Below are positions 42,679 through 64,000 of a DNA stretch of 64,000 nucleotides, in pieces; positions within the stretch are counted from its first letter, which is position 1; the number at the start of each line of letters is the position of its first letter. The notes beneath the pieces are model-generated. The model saw only the letters and a list, made by a program, of their open reading frames with translations, was not told the DNA's origin and made no database searches. Source of the stretch: a virus; the IMG/VR virus record IMGVR_UViG_3300042371_000472, positions 28,483 through 92,482 of that record, one strand, 5' to 3'. The position numbers were made by a program, and so were the translations under genes.

Positions 42679-43157
42679 TCATATTTCACTTTGATGCACT
42701 AGCCACCAAAGCCCCAACCTTTGGTCAGCGTCAGCCAAGCATGGAAGGTCGGCGCCTATGGGACTCGTTCTTCCATAAATACATGGGTCGCGTCTATCTC
42801 GTTTGTGACGGTGACGATGACATTGAGATGGTTAAGACATGGCTTAAGCGAGAGGGTTACAAGGTCTCGGCTATCTATCAGACACCCGATCTCGTACGCG
42901 ATGGGACAACACCTAGAGCCGAAGCCGTATGGGCGATTGCCTCAGCACTAGGTCGCCCACACTTCTATATAGACACCGACCCTGAGACCTGTGCCTATGC
43001 CGTTAAACAGGGCATCACAGCCCTTCTGATGGCTGTCCCCCAATTCATGCGCCCCGAGTTCCATACCCCCAACAGCATCCGAGCATGGGATACTGTGGTA
43101 GATGAACTTGACGCTCAGGCGCTCAAAAAGTCTGAAAGGACATGGGGTGACATATGA
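42675..43157 (+). CDS. Degenerate HAD-like protein
   Basis: IIFHFDAL (motif I remnant), FYIDTDP (motif IV-like). Confidence 0.5.
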   Translation: MIIFHFDALATKAPTFGQRQPSMEGRRLWDSFFHKYMGRVYLVCDGDDDIEMVKTWLKREGYKVSAIYQTPDLVRDGTTPRAEAVWAIASALGRPHFYIDTDPETCAYAVKQGITALLMAVPQFMRPEFHTPNSIRAWDTVVDELDAQALKKSERTWGDI

Positions 43158-45862: not shown

Positions 45863-45879
45863 TGTCCCACCGTGGGACA
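45863..45879. repeat. 17-bp palindrome, copy 1
   Basis: TGTCCCACCGTGGGACA abutting the AGGAG RBS of the glycosyltransferase. Confidence 0.95.
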
Positions 45880-45891
45880 GAGGAGTACAAA

Positions 45892-46971
45892 ATGAAAATT
45901 GGAGTCGCTTCAGGAGATTGGGTTCACCCCGATCATGTATCCGACGGCATTGAAAAATGGGGTGGCTCAGGATGGGCGAGGGTGGCTCAATACATGCCTC
46001 ACCTGACTGGGCACACCTTTCATGTCGGGACTCTAATTTTTGACCCCAAGCATGGGGCGTTTCAGTTACGCGACGCTAATGAAGTAATCCACGATGTGGA
46101 TGTCGTGTGGATGCAACGCCTCATGCATGGTGGGGCTGATGAGCGTATCCGCTTATCGCAGAAGCAGGGTCAGATCATCATCAACGATGTGGATGACTGG
46201 TATTGGGGGCTGTCTAGCACCAATCAAGCCTTCCACTTCACCCACCCTAAAACCAACGCCGACATCAATATCAACCACTACAAGGCGACTCTATGCGCCT
46301 CAGACCTATTGACAGTCAGCACCCCGTACCTCTACGAGCGCGTCAAGCAGTTCGCTCAGAACACAAAAGTCGTGCTGGTGCCCAACTACATTGATGTGGC
46401 TCGCTTTCCCAAGTACCGACATGTCGTGTCATCTAAGCCGACATTTGGCTGGGCAGGTAGCACTGCTCACCGAAGCCGAGACTTAGAAACTCTTGCTGGG
46501 GTTATAACTCCATTTGTTACCTCAGAAAAGATAACACTTCACCACCATGGCGCACACCCAGCGCATCCCACCATGGCATCTGCGTTACGACTTAAAGACG
46601 ATCAGGTTTCAACGACCCCATTGACCGACCACCTCAACTACCCAAATGGTTTGAGTTTTGATGTCGGCATCGTTCCCCTGAATGACATCCCATTCAACCG
46701 AGCCAAGTCAGACATCAAGGGTCTTGAGTACAGCGCCTGCGGTATCCCGTTCATTGCTCAGAACCTTGACTCATACACGCACCTGAAGTCCACACTAGGA
46801 ATTGGTCGCACAGCAAAGCGCCCCTCAGATTGGATTCGGCACATCAATGCGTTACGCTCTTATGATGCCCGAGTAGAAGAAGGAGAAGCCTGTTACGAGG
46901 GCGTAAAGGCTCGTGACATCAAATACGGGGCGCAACTCCACCAACAGATATTTGACCAATACGGAAAGTAA
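45892..46971 (+). CDS. Glycosyltransferase (GT-B, family 4-like)
   Basis: DVDD, VST.YL, VPN.ID, GWAGS..H..DL, D.GIVPL...FN.AKS.IK.LEY.A.GIP. Confidence 0.88.
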   Translation: MKIGVASGDWVHPDHVSDGIEKWGGSGWARVAQYMPHLTGHTFHVGTLIFDPKHGAFQLRDANEVIHDVDVVWMQRLMHGGADERIRLSQKQGQIIINDVDDWYWGLSSTNQAFHFTHPKTNADININHYKATLCASDLLTVSTPYLYERVKQFAQNTKVVLVPNYIDVARFPKYRHVVSSKPTFGWAGSTAHRSRDLETLAGVITPFVTSEKITLHHHGAHPAHPTMASALRLKDDQVSTTPLTDHLNYPNGLSFDVGIVPLNDIPFNRAKSDIKGLEYSACGIPFIAQNLDSYTHLKSTLGIGRTAKRPSDWIRHINALRSYDARVEEGEACYEGVKARDIKYGAQLHQQIFDQYGK

Positions 46972-46973
46972 CA

Positions 46974-47381
46974 ATGCAACCCATCAAACGACAAGTAGAA
47001 CTACCGTCATTAACGCACAGCAACATGAATTGGCAAGATCATGCATCATGCCGAGGCAGTGCTACCACTGACTTCTTTCAAGATGAAGTCGGCTTTCAGG
47101 CTAATTACTCCGCACAGCGAATCATGTGCGCCTCATGCCCAGTTCGTCTTGAGTGTTTAGACTTCGCCCTTGACAACCACATCAAGTACGGATTGTGGGG
47201 AGGAATCGCACCGAGGAATCGCCGTGATGTCGGTATGGGTAGAGCGAGTAAAGATTTAACCGTTACTCAGATCGTAAAAGACCTTAGAAAGTTAAAGGTT
47301 GAGAACCCCATCGCTCAGGCTTCCGTGATCTTCAAGACCAGCGAGAAAACTATCCGCGAACGACTACGACAAAACAAATAG
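46974..47381 (+). CDS. whiB: WhiB-family Fe-S transcription factor with C-terminal extension
   Basis: WQDHASC..FF..MCASCPVRLECL..YGLWGG.APR.R. Confidence 0.92.
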   Translation: MQPIKRQVELPSLTHSNMNWQDHASCRGSATTDFFQDEVGFQANYSAQRIMCASCPVRLECLDFALDNHIKYGLWGGIAPRNRRDVGMGRASKDLTVTQIVKDLRKLKVENPIAQASVIFKTSEKTIRERLRQNK

Positions 47382-50659: not shown

Positions 50660-50694
50660 TAGATGGGGTGTCCCACCGTGGGACACCCCATCTA
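50660..50694. repeat. Palindrome copy 2 (core 50669-50685), extended to a 35-bp perfect inverted repeat
   Basis: TAGATGGGG-core-CCCCATCTA. Confidence 0.95.
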
Positions 50695-50698
50695 AGGC

Positions 50699-51187
50699 TT
50701 AGGAGTTAGTTAGAACTTCTTTCTTACGGATAACAACGCCAGCACGGTGGAGCGTGTCGTACACGACCTTCGGCGTGACTGCGAGGTCTTTGGCGATCTT
50801 GACGCCCGACTCACCTGACTGGTAGCGGACAACGATGGAGTTGTTGCGCTCCGTGTTGGCTCGCTTGCGTCGTTCCACACCAACGGTGCGGAGGCTCGTG
50901 TAGACGGTCTCAACGGTCACTCCGAGGGAGCGAGCGATACTCGGGCCTGACTCACCTGAGCGGTAGCGGTTGGCAATCTCGGCACGGCGCATGGTTGTCT
51001 GTGCGCTTGACTTACGACCACGCTTGACGGGGCGAACAAAGATGCCAGCCTCACGAGCATGCTTCAGTAAATACTGGACTTGGTTCTCGCTAATTCCGTA
51101 TTCGGAAGCGACCACCGCCCGCACTTTTCCTGCATTGTGTTCCGCTACAACGGCATTTGCCAGCGCAACTCTCTTGAATAGATTCAT
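50699..51187 (-). CDS. Triple helix-turn-helix DNA-binding protein
   Basis: Three HTH-like repeats (VASEYGIS..V, IARSLGVT..TVY, IAKDLAVT..VVY). Confidence 0.75.
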   Translation of the reverse strand: MNLFKRVALANAVVAEHNAGKVRAVVASEYGISENQVQYLLKHAREAGIFVRPVKRGRKSSAQTTMRRAEIANRYRSGESGPSIARSLGVTVETVYTSLRTVGVERRKRANTERNNSIVVRYQSGESGVKIAKDLAVTPKVVYDTLHRAGVVIRKKEVLTNS

Positions 51188-51272
51188 GGGTTTTCCTTTT
51201 GGTTGGTTATTTGGTTTGGGATTAAATCCTCGCTGACTGGTGGGGGTACCAGCCAGCGAGGACATTGCTTAC

Positions 51273-52541
51273 TCAGAACGGTTCGTCGTCTCCGACGACC
51301 ACCTGAGGAGTTCTGCCAGCCTGCTCTTCAATCAAGAAGGTGCGGATGGACTTGTCATTGATGATGGCTTCCACCTTGGGGCGCTCACGCTCGTTGAAGA
51401 ACGAGGCAAACACTGCCAACCCAATCTCAACGCCAAGAGCGTCAATGTCTTTCTTGGCATCCACCAGCAACTTGGTGCCGACTGGTGTTTGGATTGAGCC
51501 GAGGCGACGAGCCTCACGGAGCGATTCCGCAAGCAAGACCATGCTGGGCGAGCCGAGCAACTTGGTCTCAACATCACGGTCGTATCCCCATGGGATGCGC
51601 TTGGTGAAGCGGTTGGCGAATGCCTCGTTGAGAGGCGAGGTACCACGGTACCCAGCAGGGTTCATGGTGCCGACAATCCAGCAACCCGTGTTCATCTTGG
51701 TCTGAGCCATGAGGTACTCACCCTCGGACTCCACAGCCTTCTGACGGTTGACGAACGAGCGTCGGTCGTCAGCGACTGGGTGGAGCGTTGAGGTGACTCG
51801 CTCGGGCATCATGTTGATCTCGTCAAGGTACAAGATGCATGGCACCTTGCTGGCGAGTTCAATGATGCCGTTGAGGAACACGAGGCGCTCCACGCCATCG
51901 GCACCGATGTGTGCGACCGACTGACCGAACAAGTCGTAGTCGGTGACACCAGCGGAACCGCTGAGGGTGAACACTGGGAGGGGCTTGGGGAAGCCCAGTT
52001 CCTTGGACACGAGGCAGGCGAGCACCTGAACGAACATGGTCTTGCCAGCCTGTGTGTCGCCCTCAAAGAGGACATTGGCTGAGTAACCATTGTTGTCACG
52101 GGTGCGCCAGTAGTGGAGCAGAAGGTCGGTGTCCTTGATTGAACCGAACAACTTGCGTGAGACATACTTCTTGAGCAAGTCCCATGATGGGCGGTACGGG
52201 TCAAGACGGACATCCATCGGGTCAACGATGGGCTTCTGTGCGACGACTACTGGAGCCGACGCTGGTGCGTTGACTGCTGGCGCAACTGCTGAGGTCACGA
52301 TGGTGCCATCCGAGAGCAACTTCGGGAGGAGGTAGACAACCTCACCGCTGGTGCGACGGACTTGGATGCAACGAGCGAACTCGGTGCCATCGGGGTCAAC
52401 TTCATTGGTGACGATGACGACTGTTTCGCCCACGGGGATTTCAACCCGAGTGCTGTCGGCTAATCGTGCGCTGACTGTCTTGGACTTTTTGGCAGAGATT
52501 TCAAACTCTTTGCCAACTGTGAGGTCGCTGATGCGAGCCAT
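51273..52541 (-). CDS. MoxR/CobS-type AAA+ ATPase
   Basis: GDTQAGKT, LYLDEIN, GTMNP.GY.GT.PLN.AF.NRF; start 52541 after AAGGAG. Confidence 0.88.
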   Translation of the reverse strand: MARISDLTVGKEFEISAKKSKTVSARLADSTRVEIPVGETVVIVTNEVDPDGTEFARCIQVRRTSGEVVYLLPKLLSDGTIVTSAVAPAVNAPASAPVVVAQKPIVDPMDVRLDPYRPSWDLLKKYVSRKLFGSIKDTDLLLHYWRTRDNNGYSANVLFEGDTQAGKTMFVQVLACLVSKELGFPKPLPVFTLSGSAGVTDYDLFGQSVAHIGADGVERLVFLNGIIELASKVPCILYLDEINMMPERVTSTLHPVADDRRSFVNRQKAVESEGEYLMAQTKMNTGCWIVGTMNPAGYRGTSPLNEAFANRFTKRIPWGYDRDVETKLLGSPSMVLLAESLREARRLGSIQTPVGTKLLVDAKKDIDALGVEIGLAVFASFFNERERPKVEAIINDKSIRTFLIEEQAGRTPQVVVGDDEPF

Positions 52542-52592
52542 GATGGTTCTCCTTGTGGTTTGGTGATTTGGTGGTTTAGGTTTTATTACTGC

Positions 52593-52609
52593 TGTCCCAC
52601 GGTGGGACA
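52593..52609. repeat. Palindrome copy 3 (central G)
   Basis: TGTCCCACGGTGGGACA between the VWA and MoxR genes. Confidence 0.95.
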
Positions 52610-52687
52610 CTTACTGCGATCTCCCCACCCCATGTACTACTGAGGTGGGGGAGAGACGGTATCTCTCAATTATTTGGATAACAACTC

Positions 52688-54850
52688 CTACCCAAGGAAG
52701 TTCAGAAGAAAGTTTCTGACAACTTCAGGTAGTTGTTCTATTGTGTCAATGTTGACAACTTGGTCGCAACCAACCCTGAGGAGGTACGCAGTGTCAACCT
52801 CAGCGCCAAAGGCGACTCCCAAGAACACACGACCATCACTGGCGTAGTCGTGGCACTTGACATCGCCATTCCAAACACCATCCGTGAGGATGATGACGAG
52901 GTGGTACTTCTGCTCCTCACGGTGTGAATCCAACACATTGAATGCACTTATGGGGTTAGTCCCACCACCTGGCTTTAAGGCGACTGGCTCAACATGGCGA
53001 TCAATCGCTCGCCACAACTCTTGCGAGTCTGAGTCAAAGGTGACCACGGTGCAGTCAATGCCGACTTGGTCGCAGGCTTCTTTGACGGCGAATCCGCTCA
53101 CGCCCAACTCACGACCAACACTGGACATTGAACCGCTCGTATCTAACATAAGAGTTACGGCGATGTCTAAGCCAGTGTTACCCGTTGAGGTAAGTGTGCG
53201 ACGGTACTCGTTGTCACCAGCGTTGCGAGTGCGGTATCGGAAGGCGTTGATGACACCCTCACGATGACCCTCTTCCCAAATTGGCAGGGCTGACGATGAC
53301 GCCGAGTCAAATGCCGTGCCGAGTCGGTAAGCAATGTCCCGTGCTCGGTTGGCGCCCTCGTCATCCATTGCCGTACCTGACAACTCAGGAGCGAGTTGCT
53401 TGATGTCGCCTCGGTTGAAGTCCTCGTTGATGGCTCGGACTGTGTCCTCAATGTCGGAGTCATTGTGAATCTCGTTCTCAATTTCATCCAACAATTCTTT
53501 GAGGTCAGAGGTCGTGTCATCCTCGGATGTGCCAGCGTCATCGGCGTCTTGCTGTGGCTTCTCCGTGCCACCGTCACCGCCAGCACCACCACCCTCGCCA
53601 TCATCGTTGGCATCACCATCGTTGTTGCACTTACCATCATCGTCGGCGTTGCTTGAACTCTCGTTCACACTGTCATTGGTGTTGTCACCGTCAGCAGATG
53701 AGCCTTCGCCATCCTGTGCGTCGTCGTCACCCTCGTGTGGGTCGCCCGATCCGCTTCCCTCTGACTCGTCGTCACCCTTGGCGTCATCCTTAGGTTCAGT
53801 CTTATCCTTAGACTTACCCTTGGTGATCTCTTTGCCATCCTCATCCTGATCGTCAGCCGAATCCGCCGAGTCCTGCACGGGGCGCTTCCCATTACGGGGA
53901 TGACCAGTGTGGTCATCAAACTGTGGAGGAACGATGTCCAGCGCCTTAAGCAACTGATGGAACTTGATGACAGCGACGACCTTGTCTTCAACCGATGTTG
54001 CTCGGCAATACTCCCGAACAACTTCCTCGGCTGAGACAGTGGCGTGATCGCCAAAGTAAGTGTTGAAGTTATTCCGTGACTTACGGCGTAGTTCTATCGG
54101 TAAGAACCGACGATTGATAACTAACAAATACTGGCAGGCGATTCCTTTCTCGGATGACTTGTCAATGCCACCGTTGTCGGTGCTCCAGTTCGCCTCATTG
54201 AGAATCCAGTTGACGCTCAAGTAGGTCAGGTAGCGAGCGAGGTACGGTGACTGAGCGACCAGTGCAGTTTCCATGCGCTGATCTTCTAGTATGTTCCATG
54301 CACGGCGCACACTTGTGGCTGTCTCTTGGGACAGAGTGGGGTACTTCTTGACCCACTCCTCGTTGCCGTAGCCACAGTCTGCCATCATCCAGTTGATGTG
54401 CTGGCTGAACAGAATGTGTCCTAGTTCGTGATACTGGAGCGCCTTGACCTCGCTGACCAATCGCTTGAGCGACTCAATGTCATTGATGTACACCGTGTTG
54501 CCAGCCTCATCGGCAGTGACTGGCATCGGATACTTAACGACGATCTTTGTGCCGTCTGTGTATGCCACTGGTGATTTACTGCCCACAGGCGCTTCGCCCA
54601 TGTGAATCGGTACTGAGACACCGAACGATGCATTGACCGCACGACACAGGCTCACGAGGTTGCGTATGATCGCAATTCCCTGTGATTCCTTGGTGCGATT
54701 CCTTTGGTTCCTAGAATCGGAACGGAGCGAGCCACGGGCTTTCTCCATCTCTACGAGAGCGCTCTTGCTCTGATCACGAGCGATGCGACGGCGTTCTGTT
54801 TGGAGGCGACGCTTCGCCTCGGGGGACAGGTTGATGATTGGCTTGCTCAT
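52688..54850 (-). CDS. CobT-like VWA-domain protein with HExxH metallopeptidase-like domain and acidic linker
   Basis: HELGH, N.LED.R.E, D/E/G-rich linker, MIDAS DTSGSM, GGT.P, ILTDG. Confidence 0.88.
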   Translation of the reverse strand: MSKPIINLSPEAKRRLQTERRRIARDQSKSALVEMEKARGSLRSDSRNQRNRTKESQGIAIIRNLVSLCRAVNASFGVSVPIHMGEAPVGSKSPVAYTDGTKIVVKYPMPVTADEAGNTVYINDIESLKRLVSEVKALQYHELGHILFSQHINWMMADCGYGNEEWVKKYPTLSQETATSVRRAWNILEDQRMETALVAQSPYLARYLTYLSVNWILNEANWSTDNGGIDKSSEKGIACQYLLVINRRFLPIELRRKSRNNFNTYFGDHATVSAEEVVREYCRATSVEDKVVAVIKFHQLLKALDIVPPQFDDHTGHPRNGKRPVQDSADSADDQDEDGKEITKGKSKDKTEPKDDAKGDDESEGSGSGDPHEGDDDAQDGEGSSADGDNTNDSVNESSSNADDDGKCNNDGDANDDGEGGGAGGDGGTEKPQQDADDAGTSEDDTTSDLKELLDEIENEIHNDSDIEDTVRAINEDFNRGDIKQLAPELSGTAMDDEGANRARDIAYRLGTAFDSASSSALPIWEEGHREGVINAFRYRTRNAGDNEYRRTLTSTGNTGLDIAVTLMLDTSGSMSSVGRELGVSGFAVKEACDQVGIDCTVVTFDSDSQELWRAIDRHVEPVALKPGGGTNPISAFNVLDSHREEQKYHLVIILTDGVWNGDVKCHDYASDGRVFLGVAFGAEVDTAYLLRVGCDQVVNIDTIEQLPEVVRNFLLNFLG

Positions 54851-55080
54851 TTGTATCTCCATGTTCCGTTTGGACTAACGATGACGGGAGCGTCACCATA
54901 CTGAATGGGTAGGTCACAGTTGTTGAGACCATCAAGTGCGATGTCCCAACCAATGGCATCCCATGTGCCGTTGCCATGGAAGGCAACCTTGCATGTGGGC
55001 TGGTCACTATCTCGGCTCGCAAGAGCCAGCACAAGGCTGACTCCTGCGCCGATCAGAACTAACTTGCTGAATGGATTCAT
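54847..55080 (-). CDS. Small exported/membrane protein
   Basis: N-terminal hydrophobic helix. Confidence 0.5.
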   Translation of the reverse strand: MNPFSKLVLIGAGVSLVLALASRDSDQPTCKVAFHGNGTWDAIGWDIALDGLNNCDLPIQYGDAPVIVSPNGTWRYK

Positions 55081-55376
55081 CACTTTCCCTTCTGTGCACT
55101 TGGCACGATGTCGCAGGAGCAGACGACTTCATCTTGCTCGCCTGCGTCGCCGTTCTCATCAACATCAACGATCTCGCCGTACTCGTTGATGACATCGGTG
55201 GTGTAACCCGAGTGCCAGTAACCGCCCTCGTTGAGGAAGTCGTACTTGTCATCAAGGCTGGTGGTGTCCCAGTCGGCTGGGACTAACTCTTCTTCAATGT
55301 AGAAGTAATCCCACTTCTGACCGATGCCCGAGTAGTACTGCAACTCGGTCAGTATCTCAAAACAAATCTTGCTCAT
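55080..55376 (-). CDS. Acidic hypothetical protein
   Basis: GGAGG RBS before ATG 55376. Confidence 0.55.
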   Translation of the reverse strand: MSKICFEILTELQYYSGIGQKWDYFYIEEELVPADWDTTSLDDKYDFLNEGGYWHSGYTTDVINEYGEIVDVDENGDAGEQDEVVCSCDIVPSAQKGK

Positions 55377-55591
55377 CAGTATTCCCTCCATGTTTGTGTG
55401 GGTTCATCCCACTGTGCGTTAATTGGATTGATGTCAGCATCGGCGCTGACCACCTTGATGGTGTCAGTCCACCAACAGAGTTCTTCCGCTTCCTCGTATG
55501 CCTTACGAACAAGAGCCGTGGCTTCTTCTTCGCTTTCAGCCAGCACCTCGTAGGTGCTGACCTTGGTCAGTTGATAGAACTTCTTACTCAT
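55376..55591 (-). CDS. Hypothetical protein
   Basis: AGGAGG RBS; EVLAESEEEA motif. Confidence 0.6.
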   Translation of the reverse strand: MSKKFYQLTKVSTYEVLAESEEEATALVRKAYEEAEELCWWTDTIKVVSADADINPINAQWDEPTQTWREY

Positions 55592-55805
55592 TTGTAATGC
55601 CTCCTATTACATAAAAGTCTTCGTCGTTGTCGGGGTTGGTCAGTGCGATGATCTCTTCGGCGCTTTCCACATAGAAGAAGATTGAATCGTCAAAGCGAAC
55701 ATCAACGGTGTCCTCGTCGTACTTGCCGATGGCGAATGATCGCCACTGCGGTTCGTCGTCAGCGAGTTCGTCTTTCCACTTGATCTGAAATTGATATACC
55801 TGCAT
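55584..55805 (-). CDS. Acidic hypothetical protein
   Basis: CGCCTGAGGAGGC leader. Confidence 0.6.
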   Translation of the reverse strand: MQVYQFQIKWKDELADDEPQWRSFAIGKYDEDTVDVRFDDSIFFYVESAEEIIALTNPDNDEDFYVIGGITNE

Positions 55806-55815
55806 GGTTGCCTCC

Positions 55816-56160
55816 TCAGGCGTCGTCGTTGTCGGATTCGTGTTTGCTGATGTACCTTGTCACGGCTGTTATACCTTGGACAATGATTGCTTGTTCATGT
55901 GCCTCCTTGAGAACGCTGAGGCATTCAATCAAACTGGTCAGTTCAGCAATCTTGGTCTCAAGTGCGAGCAGGCGACCTGCCTTGCTGACAAGGATTTCTG
56001 TGCCCCGACCGATGTTGTCGTTCAGGCGCTCGGTTGCCAACTTGCAGAGCGTACGGGTCTCGTACTCGTACTCGTCAAAAGCACTCTTGAGGTGTCGCTC
56101 GGCTTGAATCAAGCGATACTCAAACTCAAACTCAATCGGGTTTGTAACGGATGTTGCCAT
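55816..56160 (-). CDS. Helical hypothetical protein
   Basis: Start 56160 after CGCCTAAGGAGGC. Confidence 0.6.
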   Translation of the reverse strand: MATSVTNPIEFEFEYRLIQAERHLKSAFDEYEYETRTLCKLATERLNDNIGRGTEILVSKAGRLLALETKIAELTSLIECLSVLKEAHEQAIIVQGITAVTRYISKHESDNDDA

Positions 56161-56197
56161 TTTGTTTGCCTCCTTAGGCGTTGTTTTTAGATAAGAG

Positions 56198-56356
56198 TTA
56201 CTGTCCCACCGTGGGACAGTCGTGGACAAGTTCGCACTCGCAGTCGTAGTACGGGAACTTCAGACCGCATGTATCGCACACGGTCACATTGGGGTAGTAG
56301 GTGAAGCCCACGGGCTTGACGCCCGTGGACTCACAGCAGTACCAGTCGTCGCTCAT
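56198..56356 (-). CDS. 52-aa Cys-rich peptide ending inside the palindrome
   Basis: Translated by hand: MSDDWYCC...CDTC...CECELVHDCPTVGQ*. Confidence 0.5.
   Translation of the reverse strand: MSDDWYCCESTGVKPVGFTYYPNVTVCDTCGLKFPYYDCECELVHDCPTVGQ
56200..56220. repeat. Palindrome copy 4 (core 56202-56218)
   Basis: AC-core-GT. Confidence 0.95.
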
Positions 56357-56358
56357 GA

Positions 56359-56592
56359 TCAGTCCCAACTAATGAATGCGTTGCTGTCGGGGTGGGTGTA
56401 GAACGGGGGCGTCGCCACCAGTGTGGTGTCCTCGGCGCTGAAGCCGTTGATGGCATCAATCGCTTCGTCAATCTGAGCGACGACCTCTGCGTCTCCAGCA
56501 TCGCCTGACCACCACTCTCGGTAGTCCTCCAATGCGGTGACAATGATCGTGCTGTGTTCCTCAATGATCTGTTGGGCGGTGGGCTTGCTCAT
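56359..56592 (-). CDS. Hypothetical protein
   Basis: AAGGAG RBS, ATGA overlap. Confidence 0.6.
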   Translation of the reverse strand: MSKPTAQQIIEEHSTIIVTALEDYREWWSGDAGDAEVVAQIDEAIDAINGFSAEDTTLVATPPFYTHPDSNAFISWD

Positions 56593-56771
56593 GCTGTTTC
56601 TCCTTTGAGTTCAACTGCTTTGCCAATTCGTTCAGCAATTTCAAATATGTAATCTTCATTTTCTTCCAACTCTGCTTCATCGTTGGCGTCAAAATTGCTG
56701 GTATCAACAACTAAACATTCGCTGATATCAATGATGGTTCCTGTACCAAAATGTACGATTAACTTGCTCAT
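56589..56771 (-). CDS. Small acidic protein, paralog of 57019-57204
   Basis: IVH.GTGTII...EC.VVD shared. Confidence 0.65.
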   Translation of the reverse strand: MSKLIVHFGTGTIIDISECLVVDTSNFDANDEAELEENEDYIFEIAERIGKAVELKGETA

Positions 56772-57022
56772 GCTGGTTCTCCTTCGGATTGTTCGGGTTC
56801 AATTACTTCAATGCCACCAGTGGTGGTCAGGTCTTCGGTGATGTACGAGATGACGGCGTGGTCTTCTCCAAACCAACCCTCATCGTCTCGCACCTTGACA
56901 TCAATGCTGATCGGGAAGTCTTCAAAGGCTTCCTGAATGTCCACGGTCTCGTAGTCGTCGGGCACTTGCACCTCAGCGACAACGCTGAACTCGTACCACT
57001 GTGTGATGGTTACTGTCTTCAT
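56768..57022 (-). CDS. Acidic hypothetical protein
   Basis: AAGGAG RBS, ATGA overlaps. Confidence 0.6.
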   Translation of the reverse strand: MKTVTITQWYEFSVVAEVQVPDDYETVDIQEAFEDFPISIDVKVRDDEGWFGEDHAVISYITEDLTTTGGIEVIEPEQSEGEPA

Positions 57023-57204
57023 GATTGCTCTCCTTGTGGTTGTAGTTGTTGTCCAACACGCTGGGCGACCTCAATGATCTCGTCTTCCCAACCCGCGTCA
57101 AAAATCTCAGTGTCGTGGTCGTCTAGTTTGTCTAGGTCAACGACGACACACTCGTCGGCATTGATGATTGTTCCTGTTCCGATGTGAACGATGTACTTGG
57201 TCAT
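57019..57204 (-). CDS. Small acidic protein, paralog of 56589-56771
   Basis: IVH.GTGTII...EC.VVD shared. Confidence 0.65.
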   Translation of the reverse strand: MTKYIVHIGTGTIINADECVVVDLDKLDDHDTEIFDAGWEDEIIEVAQRVGQQLQPQGEQS

Positions 57205-57566
57205 ACCGATTCCTTTCTGCTTCGTGCGTATGCCCGTCGTGCTTGTTCCCGTAGTTCGTCTTCACGGCGGTTTGTCCATGTGATGGTCTCAAAGCCATAG
57301 ATGGTGACTTCGTCAGCATCAGCGAGCCAGTGCAATGGGCGCTCCACGCTGTATGTAATCAGGGCAATGTCAGTCCAATGCCAGTACGCCATCCCATCTT
57401 CAGAGATGGTGCGGTTGACTCCACGGAACTGGTAGGCGACGAGGTCGCCAGTTTTATTCGCCACAAACTCGGCGCTCTTGAACTGAACCCATGCTGGGTT
57501 GTCAAGATCAGGGTCGGTGACTAGCGCCCACCCTTGTTGGTTGATGATTGGGTTGATGGTCTTCAT
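57201..57566 (-). CDS. Hypothetical protein
   Basis: GGAGG RBS, ATGA overlap. Confidence 0.6.
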   Translation of the reverse strand: MKTINPIINQQGWALVTDPDLDNPAWVQFKSAEFVANKTGDLVAYQFRGVNRTISEDGMAYWHWTDIALITYSVERPLHWLADADEVTIYGFETITWTNRREDELREQARRAYARSRKESV

Positions 57567-57814
57567 TTTGATTCCTCCGTATGGGTAATGATCTTGCGGT
57601 CGTTTGCTTCGCCCCCGAGAATGGCGAACTCACGGATGAGTCGCTGGGCTTCTCTATTTGCTCCCCACTGGGTGTTGGTGTGGACATTCCAAACGAGGTT
57701 CTTGAGGTCGTCTGCGAATGGATTCGGCTCAACTCGGTAGATGCGAGTGAACCAGCGCAGAGCGCCGAGTTTGAATATCTCAATCTCGTAGGTTTCGGTG
57801 GTTTTTGTGGACAT
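57563..57814 (-). CDS. Hypothetical protein
   Basis: Start 57814 after AAGGAG. Confidence 0.6.
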   Translation of the reverse strand: MSTKTTETYEIEIFKLGALRWFTRIYRVEPNPFADDLKNLVWNVHTNTQWGANREAQRLIREFAILGGEANDRKIITHTEESK

Positions 57815-57873
57815 GATGTTTCTCCTTGTTTGTTGTTGTGTAGGTCTAACGATTGGGTGTGATGTAGTTGTGC

Positions 57874-57890
57874 TGTCCCACCGTGGGACA
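57874..57890. repeat. Palindrome copy 5
   Basis: TGTCCCACCGTGGGACA. Confidence 0.95.
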
Positions 57891-57929
57891 CTGGGGCTGG
57901 GCGCCACCACAACGCCCAACCCCAACCGA

Positions 57930-58829
57930 TCAGCCAAGACCAGCGAGGCAGTCCGAGCCGATGCCGATGGCTCGGCTGTGCTCATCCTTGAGTGTGCGAC
58001 CGCACACACCGCAGACCTTGAAGTGGACACCGAACGCACGAGCCAGTTCGGGCAGGTCGTACCTGACTAGGTCGGCAAGGACAGCATCCTGCTTGGCCTG
58101 TGGGAGGTTCTGCACTGAGTTGAAGTGCGAGCCACCGATGACCTTGGCAACGCCTGAGCGACTGACTCGGTAGTAAGCGAACCCGTCAATCTCGTCAGGG
58201 TCGGGCACTGCGAGACCGACATTGCCAGCCTTGGCATTGCCCTTGCCAACGGCTGTCAGGACTCGCTGGATGCCCGTGTCAATGCGGTCGTCAGTCTTCC
58301 CGTCACTGTGGGCACACGACTCGCACAGGGCATGCCAGCCAGCCTTGAGGTAAGCGATGTACTGGTCACGCTTACCGCACACCGAGCACTTGCTGGCGAA
58401 CCGAGCCTCAATGACCTTCTCGGCATCGGCAGGGACTGCTGGGTACTTGCTGACCCAGTCGGGGGCAACCGTGGGCAAGCCCCATGTGGCTCGTTCAGCC
58501 TTGGCTGAGTCAAGCAGGCGCTTGAGCACATCAATCGCTGTGGAGATTTCTGACTTGGCGATGGACTCTGCGCCCTCGGCAAATCCGATTACCTCAACCG
58601 TGCTGAGGACAATCTTCTCGCTGTTGACGAACTTTGTAACGACTGCCTTATCTAACTCAGTGAGAGTCTTAGATAAGAGTGTGTCAGCCTTGAGAGTCTG
58701 AGCATCGTCGCCCGACCAGTTGCTGGCTGGGTCTTGAGTGTCAACGACGACTTCGTTGAGTTGCTTCCACAGTGAGAGCAAGAACTGGACTTGCTTGGGC
58801 GTGGCTTCAGTTGAATAGGTGGTGGACAT
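57930..58829 (-). CDS. DUF6011-like zinc-binding protein
   Basis: C-terminal CGVCGRTL.D..S...GIG.DC; internal ARF...C..CG...C..C; N-terminal AT.KQ..F motif. Confidence 0.75.
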   Translation of the reverse strand: MSTTYSTEATPKQVQFLLSLWKQLNEVVVDTQDPASNWSGDDAQTLKADTLLSKTLTELDKAVVTKFVNSEKIVLSTVEVIGFAEGAESIAKSEISTAIDVLKRLLDSAKAERATWGLPTVAPDWVSKYPAVPADAEKVIEARFASKCSVCGKRDQYIAYLKAGWHALCESCAHSDGKTDDRIDTGIQRVLTAVGKGNAKAGNVGLAVPDPDEIDGFAYYRVSRSGVAKVIGGSHFNSVQNLPQAKQDAVLADLVRYDLPELARAFGVHFKVCGVCGRTLKDEHSRAIGIGSDCLAGLG

Positions 58830-58874
58830 GGTGGTTCTCCTTATGGTGGTTGGTGTTCACTATCTTGCGTTTGT

Positions 58875-58903
58875 GGGGAGTGTCCCACCGTGGGACACTC
58901 CCC
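58875..58903. repeat. Palindrome copy 6 (core 58881-58897)
   Basis: GGGGAG-core-CTCCCC. Confidence 0.95.
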
Positions 58904-58911
58904 TAAGTTGG

Positions 58912-60507
58912 TCAGCGGTACGAGTCCAACAATTCGTTGGCTGTTGAACCGCCGACCAAGGTCTCGGCTGAGTCGTCAAGGATGGCGCCGACGACGCCTG
59001 CCTTGCCCTCAAGCATGCCCCACAGGCGCTCGTCAACCGACGAGTCGCCATCAAGGGCACTGACCAAGATGTTGTTGGTGCACGGGCGTGTCTGCCCGTA
59101 CCGATGGAGCCGAGCCTCGGCTTGTTTAAGGGCACTCGGTGTCCACGGAAGTTCAACCGTGATCATCGTCGCACCCGATGTCATCGTGAGTCCCTCGGAC
59201 ACCGCTTGGATGTTGCCGATCAACACACGGGCAGTCCCAGCCTGCCACTTGTCAACGGCATCCTGTTTCTGCTTGCCCGAGTCGTCACCAGTGACGGAGA
59301 CGATTGTGCGAGCATCCACACCCTCAGCGATGAGGGACTCACGGAGTTTCCAAGCGACCTCCTTGTGGGCGGTCACGAGGAACACTTGCTCGCCCTCATC
59401 CAAGAGGCTGACCGTGGCATCCACTGCCGTGGACACCTTGCCGAGACCAGCGATCTGTCGGAGTTGACCGAGCAGAACGATGGCGTGGGCACGGTCGTTG
59501 AGCGAGAACTTGTCGTCGTCTCGCTTCTCTTGGAGGAACTCCTCAAGGTCACGGACTGCTCGCTTGTAGTCCGTCACAGCCTTGCCAGTAAGAGCGACGG
59601 GCGTGATGTACCGAGAGAACTCGGGGAGGATGATGACATCCTCACGCTTGCGCCTAATCATCACCCACTGGGTGAGTTGCTCGTTCAACTCTTTGACATT
59701 GGTGGCGCCATTGAATGTCGTACCAAAGCCGTTGAACACGGGGTCGCAGTATCGGGTCTTGAAGCGACTCGCACCGCCGAACCGAGGCAGGTGACCGAGG
59801 ATGTTGAGCAGTGGAATCAACTCCACTGGTCGGGACAGCAACGGCGTACCTGAGAGTAGGAGCACGGGCGCCTCGGGGTTGAGGTGCTTGGCAATGGTGA
59901 CCATCGCCTTGCTACGCCCCGAGTCCTCGGACTTGGAGCGGTGAGCCTCATCCTGCACCAAGCCAGCCCAAGGGTGCTTGGCGAGGATGTTGACGGGCTT
60001 GAGAGTCCGTTGCTCACGGGTCTTGCCCTGATTCGCTCGTGCCCACGAGTTGACCTCAGCGACTGGAGCCAGCGCCCAATACTGGATGACGCTGTCGGGG
60101 CAGATCACGATGTCCGTGTCGGGGACACTCGTGGGCTTCTGACCCGAGATGCGAGACACCGAGCGGTGAGGCAGGGCAGTCTTGATTGACCGCTCCCAGT
60201 TGATCACCAATGCTGGTGGACACACAATGAGGGCTGGGTAGGCGTTGAGTTCATCAAGTGCCAGCAGGGCGCTGTAGGTCTTGCCTACGCCCATGTCGTC
60301 AGCGATCAAGAGACGAGTGTGACCAGCCTTGACGGCTTCAGCCACAACGAGTTGGTGAGGCATCGGGGTGATGGCGAGCGTGTGCTCTACGATGCCCTCA
60401 GGGGCGATGCGACCCGAGAACGGGCGCAAGCCCGTGGACACCTTGGCGACAGCCTCAGCGAGGATGTCGGTAGCGCTTCGGGCGTTGGTACGGTCACTTA
60501 ATGCCAT
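58912..60507 (-). CDS. SNF2-family (SF2) helicase
   Basis: LIADDMGVGKT, DEAH, LSGTP, EGL.M, W.P....QAEARLHRYGQ. Confidence 0.92.
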   Translation of the reverse strand: MALSDRTNARSATDILAEAVAKVSTGLRPFSGRIAPEGIVEHTLAITPMPHQLVVAEAVKAGHTRLLIADDMGVGKTYSALLALDELNAYPALIVCPPALVINWERSIKTALPHRSVSRISGQKPTSVPDTDIVICPDSVIQYWALAPVAEVNSWARANQGKTREQRTLKPVNILAKHPWAGLVQDEAHRSKSEDSGRSKAMVTIAKHLNPEAPVLLLSGTPLLSRPVELIPLLNILGHLPRFGGASRFKTRYCDPVFNGFGTTFNGATNVKELNEQLTQWVMIRRKREDVIILPEFSRYITPVALTGKAVTDYKRAVRDLEEFLQEKRDDDKFSLNDRAHAIVLLGQLRQIAGLGKVSTAVDATVSLLDEGEQVFLVTAHKEVAWKLRESLIAEGVDARTIVSVTGDDSGKQKQDAVDKWQAGTARVLIGNIQAVSEGLTMTSGATMITVELPWTPSALKQAEARLHRYGQTRPCTNNILVSALDGDSSVDERLWGMLEGKAGVVGAILDDSAETLVGGSTANELLDSYR

Positions 60508-60558
60508 GGTGGCTCCTTAGTTGGTGGTGGTTTACTTATCTGTCACTATCGTCATTGT

Positions 60559-60589
60559 AGGGGAGTGTCCCACCGTGGGACACTCCCCT
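60559..60589. repeat. Palindrome copy 7 (core 60566-60582)
   Basis: AGGGGAG-core-CTCCCCT. Confidence 0.95.
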
Positions 60590-60595
60590 TACTGG

Positions 60596-61081
60596 TCACC
60601 ACGACGCTCGGTAGAAAAAGTCCCAGTATTCGGTGACGGGGTCATTGAGCAAATTGTCAATGACCTCGGCGGTGTACCGCAACGATTCCAAGTACCACTC
60701 GTCGTACTCCGTGCTCCCAAAGAAGAAGCCCGAGGTCGTCGGGAGGTGCTCGTTGGCGTACGAGTCACCGTGGATTGCCAAGCCCTTGGGCACGGTGTAA
60801 CACAGTTGGTGGAGCGCCACCAACTTCTCACGGCTGACATGAAAGCCATTGCCGTCATCCACGCCATCGTTGCATTCCTGCACGAACCAGTTGTGGATGG
60901 CATTGGCTTTGCGCCAGTACGCCACGGTCACATCAATCGTGATGTACGGGTGGTCGGGGTCAGCGATGCTGGAAGCGTTCACGAGGTCAATGATCTCGGC
61001 GTACTGGAGGCGTTCAGCGTCGGTGCTCCACTGACTACCACTGATGCAGTGCTTGGCTGATAGGTATTGGTCAAGTCCCAT
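60596..61081 (-). CDS. Conserved phage protein of unknown function
   Basis: MGLDQYL...YWRKANAIHNWF...LPT..GFFFG...YDEWY...Y.ASW pattern. Confidence 0.75.
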   Translation of the reverse strand: MGLDQYLSAKHCISGSQWSTDAERLQYAEIIDLVNASSIADPDHPYITIDVTVAYWRKANAIHNWFVQECNDGVDDGNGFHVSREKLVALHQLCYTVPKGLAIHGDSYANEHLPTTSGFFFGSTEYDEWYLESLRYTAEVIDNLLNDPVTEYWDFFYRASW

Positions 61082-61261
61082 GTCGGGTCTCCTTTGGTTG
61101 GTGGTTGGTTTGGTTGGTGGTTGGTTGAATCCGCAATGACACCCTCCCCACTACTATGGGTTGCTCGTGGGGACTTCCCACTTTCCCTCGTTGCTGACGC
61201 TTGTCCACAACGGGGGGAGGGTGTTTCGGGAGTTTGTTGTCCCGAAATCTTGAGATCGGTT

Positions 61262-61286
61262 GGGGTGTCCCACCGTGGGACACCCC
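61262..61286. repeat. Palindrome copy 8 (core 61266-61282)
   Basis: GGGG-core-CCCC. Confidence 0.95.
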
Positions 61287-61295
61287 GAGGCTCGG

Positions 61296-61634
61296 TCACC
61301 CGAATACGAGGTCACCGAGCACGATGTGCTGGAGCACGACATCACTGGCGTCTGAGTCAAAGTCGTCGCTGTCCACCGCCGACTGCACGACTTGCCAGCC
61401 AGCCTTCTTCTCCTTGATGATCTCATTGACGACTGCCTTGGCACGGCTCGGACTGAATGTCACCGACTTGGTGATGATCTTGCCATCGTCGGTCGTCTCC
61501 CCCGTTTCCATCTTGCAGACAATTTGTTCTTCATCGGTGATGTCCAGTTTGCGATACCACTCGTAGGTCTCGGCTCCCGAGTAGATCAGCGTGTCCATGA
61601 CTTCTTGGGCGTTTGCTGTCCATACTGTTTTCAT
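61296..61634 (-). CDS. Hypothetical protein
   Basis: GCCTGAGGAGGC leader; D.D...D..LQ...LG.LVFG terminus. Confidence 0.65.
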   Translation of the reverse strand: MKTVWTANAQEVMDTLIYSGAETYEWYRKLDITDEEQIVCKMETGETTDDGKIITKSVTFSPSRAKAVVNEIIKEKKAGWQVVQSAVDSDDFDSDASDVVLQHIVLGDLVFG

Positions 61635-61643
61635 GTTGCCTCC

Positions 61644-61916
61644 TCAGGCTTGATGTTGTTGTAGTTGCTTCTTCAGCCATTTGCTGGCTTCTTCGGGGTC
61701 AAGGGAATCTAGATACCGATCAACTGGGTGATCACCGTTGTCGTAATTCCAGTGGGGGTAATCTTCCCGTAGTCGCTCTATTTCCCGATCAACCTCCGTC
61801 TGAGCGACGGGGGCGTACAGGCTTCGTGCAACACCGTTGACGATCTCGTACTCACCCGAGGCAAGGCATGCCTCGTTGCGTTGCTCGTTGTACAACTTCT
61901 CAAGTTTCTTGCTCAT
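61644..61916 (-). CDS. Hypothetical protein
   Basis: CGCCTGAGGAGGC leader. Confidence 0.6.
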   Translation of the reverse strand: MSKKLEKLYNEQRNEACLASGEYEIVNGVARSLYAPVAQTEVDREIERLREDYPHWNYDNGDHPVDRYLDSLDPEEASKWLKKQLQQHQA

Positions 61917-61957
61917 GTTGCCTCCTCAGGCGTCGTTGTTCACTATCGGGATATTTG

Positions 61958-61999
61958 TGGGGCGAGTGTCCCACCGTGGGACACTCACCCCGAGGTTGA
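61958..61999. repeat. Palindrome copy 9 (core 61967-61983); 42-bp direct repeat with copy 10
   Basis: TGGGGCGAG-core-CTCACCCCGAGGTTGA. Confidence 0.95.
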
Positions 62000-62003
62000 G
62001 CGA

Positions 62004-62282
62004 TCAGTAGATGCCGTCAGGCTCATCGTCGCTGATGAACTCGTGGGCGAACAGTGGGTCAAAGCCACACTCTTCAAGAAACGAGCGGTAGTTGTACACT
62101 CGGTCGCTGTCGCTGAGACCTGCATACGGCACGAGTGCCGAGTGGATTTGAACGGCGATCTGAGCCAACTCCACGGTCGCCTTGGTCGCTACGCCACCCG
62201 TGAGGCGGTTCATGGTGAAGTGGTCACGGAAGGCGCTGGCGACTCGGTCGCATGCTTGCTCGGGTGTTCGGTTGATGTCCAT
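62004..62282 (-). CDS. Hypothetical protein
   Basis: Start 62282 after CGCCTAGGAGGC. Confidence 0.6.
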   Translation of the reverse strand: MDINRTPEQACDRVASAFRDHFTMNRLTGGVATKATVELAQIAVQIHSALVPYAGLSDSDRVYNYRSFLEECGFDPLFAHEFISDDEPDGIY

Positions 62283-62322
62283 GTTGCCTCCTAGGCGTTG
62301 GTGGTGGTTGATGGTTGGTGGA

Positions 62323-62364
62323 TGGGGCGAGTGTCCCACCGTGGGACACTCACCCCGAGGTTGA
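62323..62364. repeat. Palindrome copy 10 (core 62332-62348)
   Basis: Identical 42 bp to copy 9. Confidence 0.95.
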
Positions 62365-63132
62365 TCAGGCGCTGAGGGCGTCGGCGCTTGCATTGAACAG
62401 GTTGCCCCGATCTTGCTGATCAAGTGGCACGGTGTTGGCGCTGACACGGAGCAGTGCCACGGCGAGCGTGGCGAACACTTCGTGGTCATCCTGAAGCGAT
62501 GCGATCAGGTTGGCGGTGACATCGGCAATGGCTTCGGCGCCATGCTCAGTCAACTGTGCGACGATCTCGTCAACGGTCAAGGCGACCACTGACTCGTCGG
62601 TGCTGTCGGCGTCGCTCTCGGCGCTCTCGGTCTCGGCTTCAGCCTTGGCAGACTTCTCAGCCTTTTTGGCTTCGCCCTTTTCGGCTTTGTTGATCTTGGC
62701 GAGCACTTCAAGGGCGTCGGCGCTCTCATCCTTGATGAGGATGGCGCCAGCCTTGGCGTAGCGAGCGTAGGTGGACTTGCCGATCTTGGCGCCAGCAGTC
62801 TTACTTGCCAACTCAAGGGCACGGAACGAGACACCAGCCTCGTTGGCGTTGAACACGGCGATGCATGCCGAGCGGAGCGCCAACTTGGCGTCGGCAACGG
62901 CGCTCTCGGACTTGATGGCTTCGGCAACAGCCAAGGCGGTCAGGTCGGCAGGGGTCGCCTTGACTTCAACGACTTCGGCAACTACTGGCGCTTCAACAGC
63001 GACAGGCTTGGCGGTGTGGGTACGGGCTTTTTTGGTGGTGGTGGTTGACACTTTGGTCTCCTTGGTTGTGGTGGTGGCTGGTTTGCCAGCGAGCAGATTG
63101 GCGAGTCCTACTGGGCGGTCGGTGGTCTTCAT
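62365..63132 (-). CDS. Ala/Lys-rich protein with possible HTH
   Basis: GVSFRALE.......IGKSTYARY is HTH-like; start 63132 after CGCCTGAGGAGGC; strongly biased codons. Confidence 0.65.
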   Translation of the reverse strand: MKTTDRPVGLANLLAGKPATTTTKETKVSTTTTKKARTHTAKPVAVEAPVVAEVVEVKATPADLTALAVAEAIKSESAVADAKLALRSACIAVFNANEAGVSFRALELASKTAGAKIGKSTYARYAKAGAILIKDESADALEVLAKINKAEKGEAKKAEKSAKAEAETESAESDADSTDESVVALTVDEIVAQLTEHGAEAIADVTANLIASLQDDHEVFATLAVALLRVSANTVPLDQQDRGNLFNASADALSA

Positions 63133-63164
63133 GGTGTGCCTCCTCAGGCGTTGGTGGTGGTTGA

Positions 63165-63193
63165 ACTGTCCCACCGTGGGACAGTCGTGGACA
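63165..63193. repeat. Palindrome copy 11 (core 63167-63183); 29 bp identical to copy 4
   Basis: ACTGTCCCACCGTGGGACAGTCGTGGACA. Confidence 0.95.
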
Positions 63194-63606
63194 GGTGCGA
63201 TTGAACGCTACGCCCGAGGCGCCTGCCCGAATTGCGATGATCATATATGAGTCCAAGATCGGTGGACTCCCCTCCCTTGCTTCACCCGAGGGGATTGGAT
63301 GCACTGCAATCTTTTATGAACGGCTCGCCAACCTTGGTGATTGCTAGTCACCGATACATCGTTGTTTGTATTTCGGGTATCCATCGGACTTCCAGCAGGC
63401 ACAGGTGGCGGTGCATTCGCTGGTCACTTGATCTTGGTGAAGTTGCTCGTCGTATCGGCTCGGCGCTTGCCCTCATACTCACCAGCGTCGCTGGGGCGCA
63501 TCTCGGTCATCCCCGTTGGTGCAGACATCTGCTGGGGGAAACCATCACGGCGAGTGCCTGTGATGCTTGAGTGTTTGGGGTCACGCTCTGCTGACCAGTC
63601 ACTACC

Positions 63607-63623
63607 TGTCCCATGGTGGGACA
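63607..63623. repeat. Palindrome copy 12 (variant)
   Basis: TGTCCCA-TGG-TGGGACA; arms conserved, centre changed. Confidence 0.85.
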
Positions 63624-64000
63624 CCGAGACTTACGGCTTGGCACGCTGGCTTGTCAGGCTGGCGTGGTGGGCACTGCTCGTTCTACATGACTGACCGTTG
63701 ATACTGGAGAAGCCCGAAATTGTTTGGCGCTTCAGATCAGAGGTGTTGTCTCATGGTTTTCTGAGTTAGTAGGTGGTTCAGACTTTCAGGTTGCTTTCGC
63801 ATTTCGTCTACCGCCGAACTGGATTGGCGTTCTCACTGGGTGAGGCAGGACTACCTGTCGGTCTGAGCACTGTTGGCTATTTGTCAAGGGACACTGTGGG
63901 AGCAGTGAGATGTCTCAGTTGCTCGGTTTGTACTACTTGGTCTTACAAAACCCAGTAGTGGGTGCTGTCAAATGCCCAGCGTGTGGGCACTTGACAGCAC

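Follow-up and report, generated by a model that had tools for sequence, protein, structure and literature searches.

Palindromic sites with a switching core, set in or beside hairpins with co-varying flanks, in the leftward early block of a putative actinophage

The stretch of DNA studied here, called the window throughout, is the right-hand 64 kb (64,000 nucleotides, nt) of the 92.5-kb IMG/VR virus record IMGVR_UViG_3300042371_000472. The host of this phage (phage A below) is judged to be an actinobacterium from the presence of a WhiB-like regulator (46974-47381) and a DUF6011 protein. Between 47.4 and 63.1 kb, the window carries a leftward early and replication gene block that contains an SNF2 helicase, an AAA_5 ATPase, a protein with repeated helix-turn-helix (HTH) motifs and numerous small open reading frames (ORFs). 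The element in question is a 17-base palindromic core, TGTCCCAC(C/G)GTGGGACA, which is found at nearly every transcription-unit junction of this block and which, at some of its copies, is extended into a longer hairpin by self-complementary flanks. An earlier note on this DNA had proposed that the entity under selection is a single-stranded hairpin on the minus strand. Our analysis partly supports this for the flanks, whereas the core behaves in a way that points to a site read in double-stranded DNA.

The core is present in 12 copies, all of them inside the window, with zero elsewhere in the record and 0.2 expected by chance. All 12 lie between annotated genes, although a small Cys-rich ORF that is missing from the annotation may include the copy at 56202 in its 3' end. 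This ORF (minus strand, approximately 56190-56355, with the pattern CC...CxxC...CxC...C) begins 3 nt past the upstream stop and, read by eye only, seems to cross the core copy, with its TAA end just beyond. The copies that the earlier note had placed between 50660 and 62364 are present, and three more (45863, 63167, and 63607) fall outside that range. Copies 9 and 10, at 61967 and 62332, are identical over 42 nt and are counted here as one event. Isolated half-sites are not enriched, i.e., 3 were found outside full sites versus 2.9 expected.

Past the 8-bp half-core, pairing continues for 9, 6, 7, and 4 pairs in four of the copies and for 3 pairs, a wobble, and another 4 pairs in the copies at 61967 and 62332, while of the remaining six copies two gain 2 extra pairs and the others gain none. 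Given a chance pairing of 0.243 per position, the probability of four independent copies with at least four extra Watson-Crick pairs is about 1e-7. All flank pairs listed in the earlier note were found, and the flanks vary between copies yet remain self-complementary. Predicted folding energies of the six flanked copies range from -23.1 to -31.5 kcal/mol (z -2.9 to -6.6), and those of unflanked copies from about -10 to -16 kcal/mol. Two hairpins without the core, at 51227-51262 and 57892-57924, which had been singled out beforehand as following the same pattern, are likewise real, with one minus-strand G-U each. Throughout the block, a strong hairpin lies 3-12 nt past the stop codon in each intergenic gap of at least 20 nt. 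The core forms the hairpin apex in six of these gaps and lies beside separate hairpins at 57874 and 52593, and the hairpins at 51227 and near 55030 are coreless. In the related phages D and E, an unrelated 13-bp hairpin occupies the position of phage A's 51227-51262.

Relatives of the window phage were recovered by a pattern scan and two protein-based scans, giving eight lineages; the IMG/VR and JGI scans gave three new loci. DNA identity to phage A is 88-97% for phage B, 73-87% for phage C, and 66-79% for phage D; phage G has an orthologue of the first early protein with 93% identity, and phages E, F, and H have other core types. A gapless alignment of 52 distinct sites from the eight phage lineages yielded a flank covariation score of 0.277, compared with 0.131 +/- 0.011 for shuffled alignments (0 of 500 as high) and 0.07-0.11 for shifted-partner controls. 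The covariation that the earlier note had proposed to look for among homologous sites is present, and it extends beyond the paralogous copies. Across the 52 sites, the flank pairs are of the types G-C, C-G, A-U, U-A, and G-U. For instance, the flanks TAGATGGGG/CCCCATCTA at 50677 in A read TTAGACGGAG/CTCCGTTTG in the orthologues of B and F (G-C to A-U, U-A to C-G). GGGGAG/CTCCCC in A is replaced by GGTGAG/CTCACC in F and by GGGGG/CCCCC in D and E, the core-adjacent GAG/CTC is GGC/GTC in F and H, and phage F carries compensatory changes at 1381 (G-C to C-G) and at 3644 (G-C to U-A). The flanks are supported as being kept complementary and as forming real hairpins. No Rfam family was matched at E <= 1. 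Two wastewater contig sets labelled 'RNA-Seq', which are probably DNA, contain 6% of the sampled words; the contigs are interrupted at the palindromes, as is to be expected of repeats in k-mer assembly.

The earlier note had further held that mismatches in the stems become G-U pairs only on the coding (minus) strand. The direction of this claim stands, but the word 'only' does not, given counter-examples at 61266 and in relative D. At 61967 and 62332 the C-A mismatch on the plus strand is indeed a U-G on the minus strand. Approximately eight independent hairpin events have a coding-strand G-U (the GGGGUGAG family, F sites 1381 and 2461, the B/F orthologue of 50677, a C site with three wobbles, both coreless hairpins, and a new U-G in F's second coreless hairpin), versus one solid and two weak events in the opposite direction. 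One of the weak events is the copy at 61266, where flank position 13 is a T-G on the plus strand and a single pair comes after it. Because G and T are scarce on the coding strand (chance of G-U 0.081 versus 0.175 for A-C), chance would favour the opposite asymmetry, and the p-value against a composition-adjusted null is about 0.002-0.01. One position of the hairpin 57892-57924 pairs as U-G in phages A and B, as U-A in F, and as C-G in G, and a series of C-G, U-G, and U-A is the usual path for an RNA stem. Whole-segment folding energy was also tried as a strand test and was dropped as confounded; owing to its high G/T content, the antisense strand folds lower in 21 of 33 sites, and this measure does not favour the coding strand. 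Overall, folding is likelier on the coding strand, with modest support.

The core tells a different story from the flanks. Two positions adjacent to its centre, which cannot pair across a 1-nt loop, are nevertheless complementary in 86.5% of the 52 sites. At the 7th pair, 31 sites have A-U and 21 have G-C, and no site is unpaired there. The central C/G flips between orthologous sites, even between near-identical contigs (L004 versus L022), and has no strand preference across lineages. Most of the DNA of phage F is about 90-95% identical to that of A, and its helicase is 97% identical, but at 12 of 12 orthologous positions its core reads TGTCCC-GNNNC-GGGACA, with the inner variants G(AST/TGT/ACA)C. 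Several of these F sites, e.g., the orthologues of 58881 and 52593, keep identical flanks and downstream motifs. In phage E the core is TGTCCC-GTWAC-GGGACA. The frame of outer hexamers (TGTCCC/GGGACA), set 5 bp apart, does not change, and what switches is the inner pentamer. Such a concerted, genome-wide change of five bases in an invariant frame points to a co-evolving sequence-specific reader; it is not a change that RNA stability on its own would call for. The proposal that a single-stranded hairpin is the selected entity is therefore partly supported for the flanks and not supported for the core, where the complementary yet unpairable positions, the flipping centre, and the 12-site pentamer switch point to a site for a sequence-specific binder of double-stranded DNA. 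A duplex-DNA layer and a hairpin layer both exist, and they are separable.

Could the whole element, core included, instead be an early-mRNA hairpin? In that case a phage RNA-binding protein or nuclease would read it, as in lambda N/boxB or Cas6 and its CRISPR repeat, in order to process, terminate, anti-terminate, or stabilise the polycistronic message, and the switching apical part would be that reader's specificity determinant. The switching part is exactly the loop and closing pair of such a hairpin (A[CSG]U, G[NNN]C, and G[UWA]C), and lambdoid N-boxB pairs also differ among related phages. The co-varying flanks lengthen the stem, the G-U pairs favour the coding strand, and the hairpins lie 3-12 nt past stop codons. 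Nevertheless, loop positions 1 and 3 are complementary in 86.5% of the sites without being able to pair, and the loop centre varies within one genome, the whole loop in phage F being UGU, ACU, AGU, or ACA. Moreover, no RNA-binding protein was recognised, there is the lack of an Rfam match given above, and if the downstream GATAGT motif discussed below is a -10 element, transcripts starting from there would exclude the hairpin. We regard a purely RNA-based explanation as unlikely.

A second alternative places the selection in DNA structure or recombination, with cruciforms, single-stranded DNA hairpins, or dispersed repeats marking the boundaries of cassette exchange, replication, or packaging, and with arms kept complementary by template-switch (quasipalindrome) correction or short gene conversion instead of by selection on RNA. 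Gene content between the sites does vary (B lacks 61644-61916 and has an extra gene, and F has an extra site), and homology breakpoints coincide with sites, but recombination at repeats is the expected side effect of any dispersed repeat. Also in favour of this model are the symmetric 4-nt difference on both arms between the window copy at 61266 and its F orthologue 2461, the flip of the centre between L004 and L022, the fact that internal mismatches are all of transition type on one or the other strand, and copies 9 and 10, which form 42-nt direct repeats bracketing one gene. Against it, phages A, B, F, and G all retain a U-G, uncorrected, at one and the same position of the flank, and no recombinase was found in the phage. 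In addition, hairpins of unrelated sequence occupy the same post-stop positions, and some selective agent would have to lie behind a pentamer switch made in concert across the genome while the flanks stay as they are. These points leave the recombination model, in our view, with a low probability, below that of the RNA-based one. REPIN and integron attC models were rejected, since the conserved part lies at the hairpin base in those elements and at the apex here, and no recombinase is present.

Coordinates of all core copies, the two coreless hairpins listed here, and the two candidate binders are given in Table 1.

Table 1. Core copies, coreless hairpins, and candidate core-binding proteins (window positions; energies are predicted)
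Feature	Position	Strand	Remarks
Core copy 1	45863..45879	.	No flank pairing; between two plus-strand genes; abuts GAGGAG ribosome-binding site of glycosyltransferase gene 45892-46971
Core copy 2	50660..50694 (core 50669-50685)	-	Apex of 16-bp hairpin, flanks TAGATGGGG/CCCCATCTA; -30.8 kcal/mol, z -5.7; hairpin begins 4 nt past stop of gene 50699-51187; GATAGTGA 17 nt downstream of core
Core copy 3	52593..52609	-	Unflanked; two separate hairpins upstream in same gap (52610-52687)
Core copy 4	56200..56220	-	Flank AC/GT only; third half-site GTCCAC 3 nt upstream
Core copy 5	57874..57890	-	Unflanked; directly 3' of separate hairpin 57892-57924
Core copy 6	58875..58903	-	Hairpin, flanks GGGGAG/CTCCCC; downstream of SNF2 helicase stop; -27.6 kcal/mol, z -5.9; GATAGTGA 16 nt downstream of core
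Core copy 7	60559..60589	-	Hairpin, flanks AGGGGAG/CTCCCCT; -29.4 kcal/mol, z -5.0; GATAGTGA 15 nt downstream of core
Core copy 8	61262..61286	-	Hairpin, flanks GGGG/CCCC; next position wobbles only on plus strand; -23.1 kcal/mol, z -2.9
Core copy 9	61959..61991	-	Hairpin, flanks GGGGUGAG/CUCGCCCC, one minus-strand U-G; -31.5 kcal/mol, z -6.6; GATAGTGA 19 nt downstream of core
Core copy 10	62324..62356	-	Same 42 nt as copy 9
Core copy 11	63165..63185	-	Flank AC/GT and third half-site GTCCAC; centre 43 nt before start of first early gene (62365-63132)
Core copy 12	63607..63623	-	Two mismatches; in ~870-nt ORF-free right end; GTAGTGAC directly after
Coreless hairpin	51227..51262	-	9 nt past stop of AAA_5 ATPase gene; one minus-strand G-U; -30.2 kcal/mol, z -7.95
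Coreless hairpin	57892..57924	-	After stop of gene 57930-58829; one U-G; -27.9 kcal/mol, z -5.2
First early gene, candidate binder	62365..63132	-	255 amino acids, no Pfam family; central helical domain allele tracks core type in 7 lineages
Second candidate binder	50699..51187	-	162 amino acids, repeated HTH motifs; sole recognisable multi-HTH DNA-binding protein in early block

The first early gene is the only early gene with an allele that tracks the core type. Two forms of its central domain occur, the first in A, B, C, and G and the second in F, H, and L120, and in the mosaic phage C the association with core type is carried by this domain and not by the termini. Outside these phages, the same 17-mer fills the spacer of a TTGACA-to-TAnnAT promoter in an unrelated viral contig and sits beside parA-parB operons in Bdellovibrionota-type genomes, and both placements are consistent with a duplex protein site. 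In four contigs of Bdellovibrionota-type metagenome-assembled genomes (L124, L164, L169, and L198), two copies of the 17-mer lie just past the end of a parA-parB operon, and in L124 and L164 the two copies flank a TTGACAATA motif; these resemble parS-type or operator sites. The exact 17-mer TGTCCCACSGTGGGACA is also a dispersed repeat in Paracoccaceae (Tabrizicola, Gemmobacter, Citreimonas, and Neotabrizicola), with dozens of copies per genome. There (GTDB loci L122-L201, e.g., L125, L133, and L148) a conserved TCAATG(G) is usually found about 20 nt off, making a composite element.

The occurrence of the exact 17-mer beside parA-parB operons and in such numbers in Paracoccaceae raises the possibility that the core is read by a host DNA-binding protein, ParB-like or another global regulator, and that the core types reflect different hosts. 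The canonical parS half-site is TGTTCCAC, from which the core half-site TGTCCCAC differs by one base. However, the site is a 17-bp odd palindrome and not a 16-bp even parS, and the phage itself is without a ParB_N or HTH_ParB domain (PF02195 and PF17762 gave nothing at E <= 1 across the 92-kb record, while the controls matched). Phage F and the window phage are only 65-73% identical at about 37.6-48.6 kb of the genome, outside the early block, and a different host is possible if host-range genes lie there. The binder within the phage being a matter of candidates also fits a host protein, but the core type tracks an allele of a phage early gene. Of the alternatives considered, a host-factor site seems to us the least probable.

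The GATAGTGA motif occurs 15-19 nt downstream of four of the window cores (50669, 58881, 60566, and 61967) and 14-19 nt downstream across the relatives, and phages B, C, F, and G have kept it. A role as a -10 element is plausible. The arm GGGACA was considered as a fixed -35 element and was rejected, as the spacing to GATAGT ranges from 14 to 19 nt. On the minus strand at 55003-55050, a strong coreless hairpin is followed after 2-3 nt by GATAGTGAC, so hairpin and -10-like motif also co-occur without the operator. The earlier note had remarked that most copies lack a U-tract, and in fact none of the hairpins has one: there is no minus-strand terminator-like site at any copy, the total from the terminator scan equals the shuffle expectation, and the 3' sequences are C/A-rich.

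The explanation that we favour, with somewhat more confidence than doubt, is that the sites are operators for a phage regulator, nested in or beside terminator-like post-stop hairpins. In a first layer, the 17-bp core would be a duplex DNA site for a symmetric, sequence-specific and probably phage-encoded regulator, whose specificity would be set by the inner five bases within the constant outer hexamers; the sites upstream of a -10-like motif would fit repression of early promoters by occlusion or roadblock. The second layer would consist of the flanks and the coreless hairpins, which form stable stem-loops 3-12 nt past stops in the coding-strand RNA and most likely end the upstream transcript or shield it from 3' decay. 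Because the operator is itself palindromic, it is able to occupy a hairpin apex (6 copies) or to adjoin a separate hairpin (52593 and 57874). Searches of the phage for a tyrosine or serine recombinase/integrase and for sigma region 4 found none. With no integrase, ParB, or sigma factor found, the regulator is likelier a factor for lytic-cycle timing or phage-versus-phage specificity than a lysogeny repressor.

Several observations weigh against this two-layer explanation. The protein that binds the core is represented only by candidates, and the correlation between the 255-amino-acid protein's allele and the core type could be plain linkage, the gene being 43 nt from a site. A scan of the proteins common to A, B, D, E, and F revealed no substitutions tracking core type, and the predicted fold of the 255-amino-acid protein (two helical domains, predicted local distance difference test score (pLDDT) 67.6) had no DNA-binding or usable match in Foldseek, VIA, or Atlas. 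On the promoter side, no more than 4-5 of the 12 cores are followed by GATAGTGA, at distances that differ by 6 nt; the motif is absent in D and E, and a simple promoter scan showed no enrichment. As for the hairpins, relative D provides a solid counter-example on strand, with four consecutive antisense wobbles followed by 4 pairs, and the strand asymmetry is statistically weak against a 50:50 null (p about 0.02-0.11). Lastly, mycobacterial RNA polymerase reportedly needs a U-tract at intrinsic terminators (PMC3993855), which makes termination by the hairpins alone doubtful.

A bolder version of the operator reading would be a lytic actinophage with an immunity-like specificity, in which a regulator would read the palindromes at each junction between early transcription units, regulator and all 12 sites would have switched in concert (ACSGT, GASTC, and GTWAC) between phages with otherwise about 90-95% identity, and the element would act both as duplex operator or roadblock and as RNA 3'-end hairpin. 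We consider this improbable as a whole, but if it were true, related phages could silence, or escape, each other in co-infection, and a single module would combine regulation with transcript punctuation. Multi-copy palindromes in the early regions of actinophages have often been noted and rarely explained. Here, near-identical relatives have three core types at the same 12 positions, a natural experiment in which the flanks, as the hairpin layer, change independently of the inner pentamer, as the recognition layer. The phage group makes it testable which protein reads the sites, whether specificity switching serves as phage-against-phage exclusion with no integrase detected, and whether hairpins lacking a U-tract end or stabilise actinobacterial transcripts.

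We would also like to note several features of the surrounding DNA. On the plus strand, 43154-44572 encodes a queuine tRNA-ribosyltransferase homologue (DpdA-like) and 45892-46971 a glycosyltransferase, which together suggest a 7-deazaguanine-type or related DNA modification. Between core copy 8 and the gene 60596-61081, an insert of about 130 nt in 61082-61257 is structured and includes the hairpin TTTCGGGACAACAAACTCCCGAAA with a GGGACA half-site; it is present in C and G and absent in B, and may be a small RNA. The final ~870 nt of the record (window 63133-64000) have no plausible ORF, and a large inverted repeat, GTGCTGTCAAGTGCCCA ... TGGGCATTTGACAGCAC, forms their end at about 63960-64000. 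At the left end of the genome, outside the window, ORFs at 938-2324 of L242 had no Pfam match at E <= 0.01. A T7-type single-subunit RNA polymerase (PF00940), which N4-type hairpin promoters read by a virion RNA polymerase would call for, had no match in the phage, nor in any control genome, and megablast of the region against 50,697 phage records returned zero matches.

The elements resemble several known systems in part. Like intrinsic terminators and 3' stabilising hairpins, they have G+C-rich stems just past stops whose structure is kept while the sequence changes, but they are without a U-tract, and a fixed 17-nt apex sequence is not a terminator feature. The half-site TGTCCCAC recalls the TGTTCCAC of parS/ParB systems, and other bacteria carry the identical 17-mer next to parAB operons; KorB of plasmid RK2, likewise comparable, has 12 palindromic operators controlling many promoters. 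In contrast to the 16-bp even palindrome of parS, TGTTNCACGTGAAACA, the core is 17 bp and odd, its half-site matches that of parS at 7/8 positions, and no ParB-family protein was found in this phage.

Cluster A stoperators share the multi-site, specificity-switching logic: they are numerous genome-wide repressor sites, and related phages have different motifs and repressors, which determine immune specificity (PMC6550527, PMC9283540). However, stoperators are asymmetric, 13-14 bp long, oriented with transcription, bound by a monomer, and neither palindromes nor hairpins, whereas the core described here is a perfect palindrome with no consistent orientation of its centre. Cluster O mycobacteriophages such as Corndog have 17-bp palindromes, TGTTCGG-NNN-CCGAACA, for which the authors predict a dimeric DNA-binding protein while stating the function of the repeats as unknown (PMC4351075). 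The two sets share 7-bp arms with a 3-nt centre, TGT...ACA ends, and a centre without orientation, and each is densest in the leftward operon that occupies the right end of the genome, in an actinophage with no integrase. This is a likeness of design and not homology, as the sequences differ. In Corndog the palindromes number over 30, and roughly one in three falls within a gene. Their flanks lack complementarity, with pairing extended by 0-3 pairs in 25 sites, and an asymmetric CCCCAC flank follows the sites. In the leftward operon of Corndog (L244, 40000-69777), most palindromes are followed by coding-strand CCCCAC(G)A(G)AGA and the centre is mostly AAA, which suggests more orientation than the published description implies.

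The closest parallel in arrangement comes from the Streptomyces phage phiC31, whose genome (AJ006589) we examined directly. It has 16 near-identical copies of its conserved inverted repeats (CIRs; core CCTACTCACGTGAGTAGG), 15 of them intergenic; at least five have variable paired flanks with coding-strand G-U pairs, and one has a T-tract. As here, with 12 copies, the repeats are many, intergenic, and near-identical, and a subset of the cores lies inside larger, non-conserved dyads, as do 6/12 copies here with 4-9 extra pairs. The phiC31 repressor is said to bind the CIRs (Ingham and co-workers, in 1994), and the early region of phiC31 reportedly has terminators without poly-U (Ingham, Hunter and Smith, a year later, in 1995, NAR 23:370). 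The core sequences are unrelated, though, that of phiC31 being an even 18-bp palindrome, and phiC31 is a temperate siphovirus with an integrase, unlike this phage, in which neither the tyrosine nor the serine type was found. When phages A, E, and F were searched by tblastn with the phiC31 repressor (c gene), no hit had an E value under 1.7. A concerted switch of an inner pentamer between relatives is not known from phiC31. The kind of element described here is thus already known from phiC31, and the concerted change of specificity among near relatives is its most interesting new feature.

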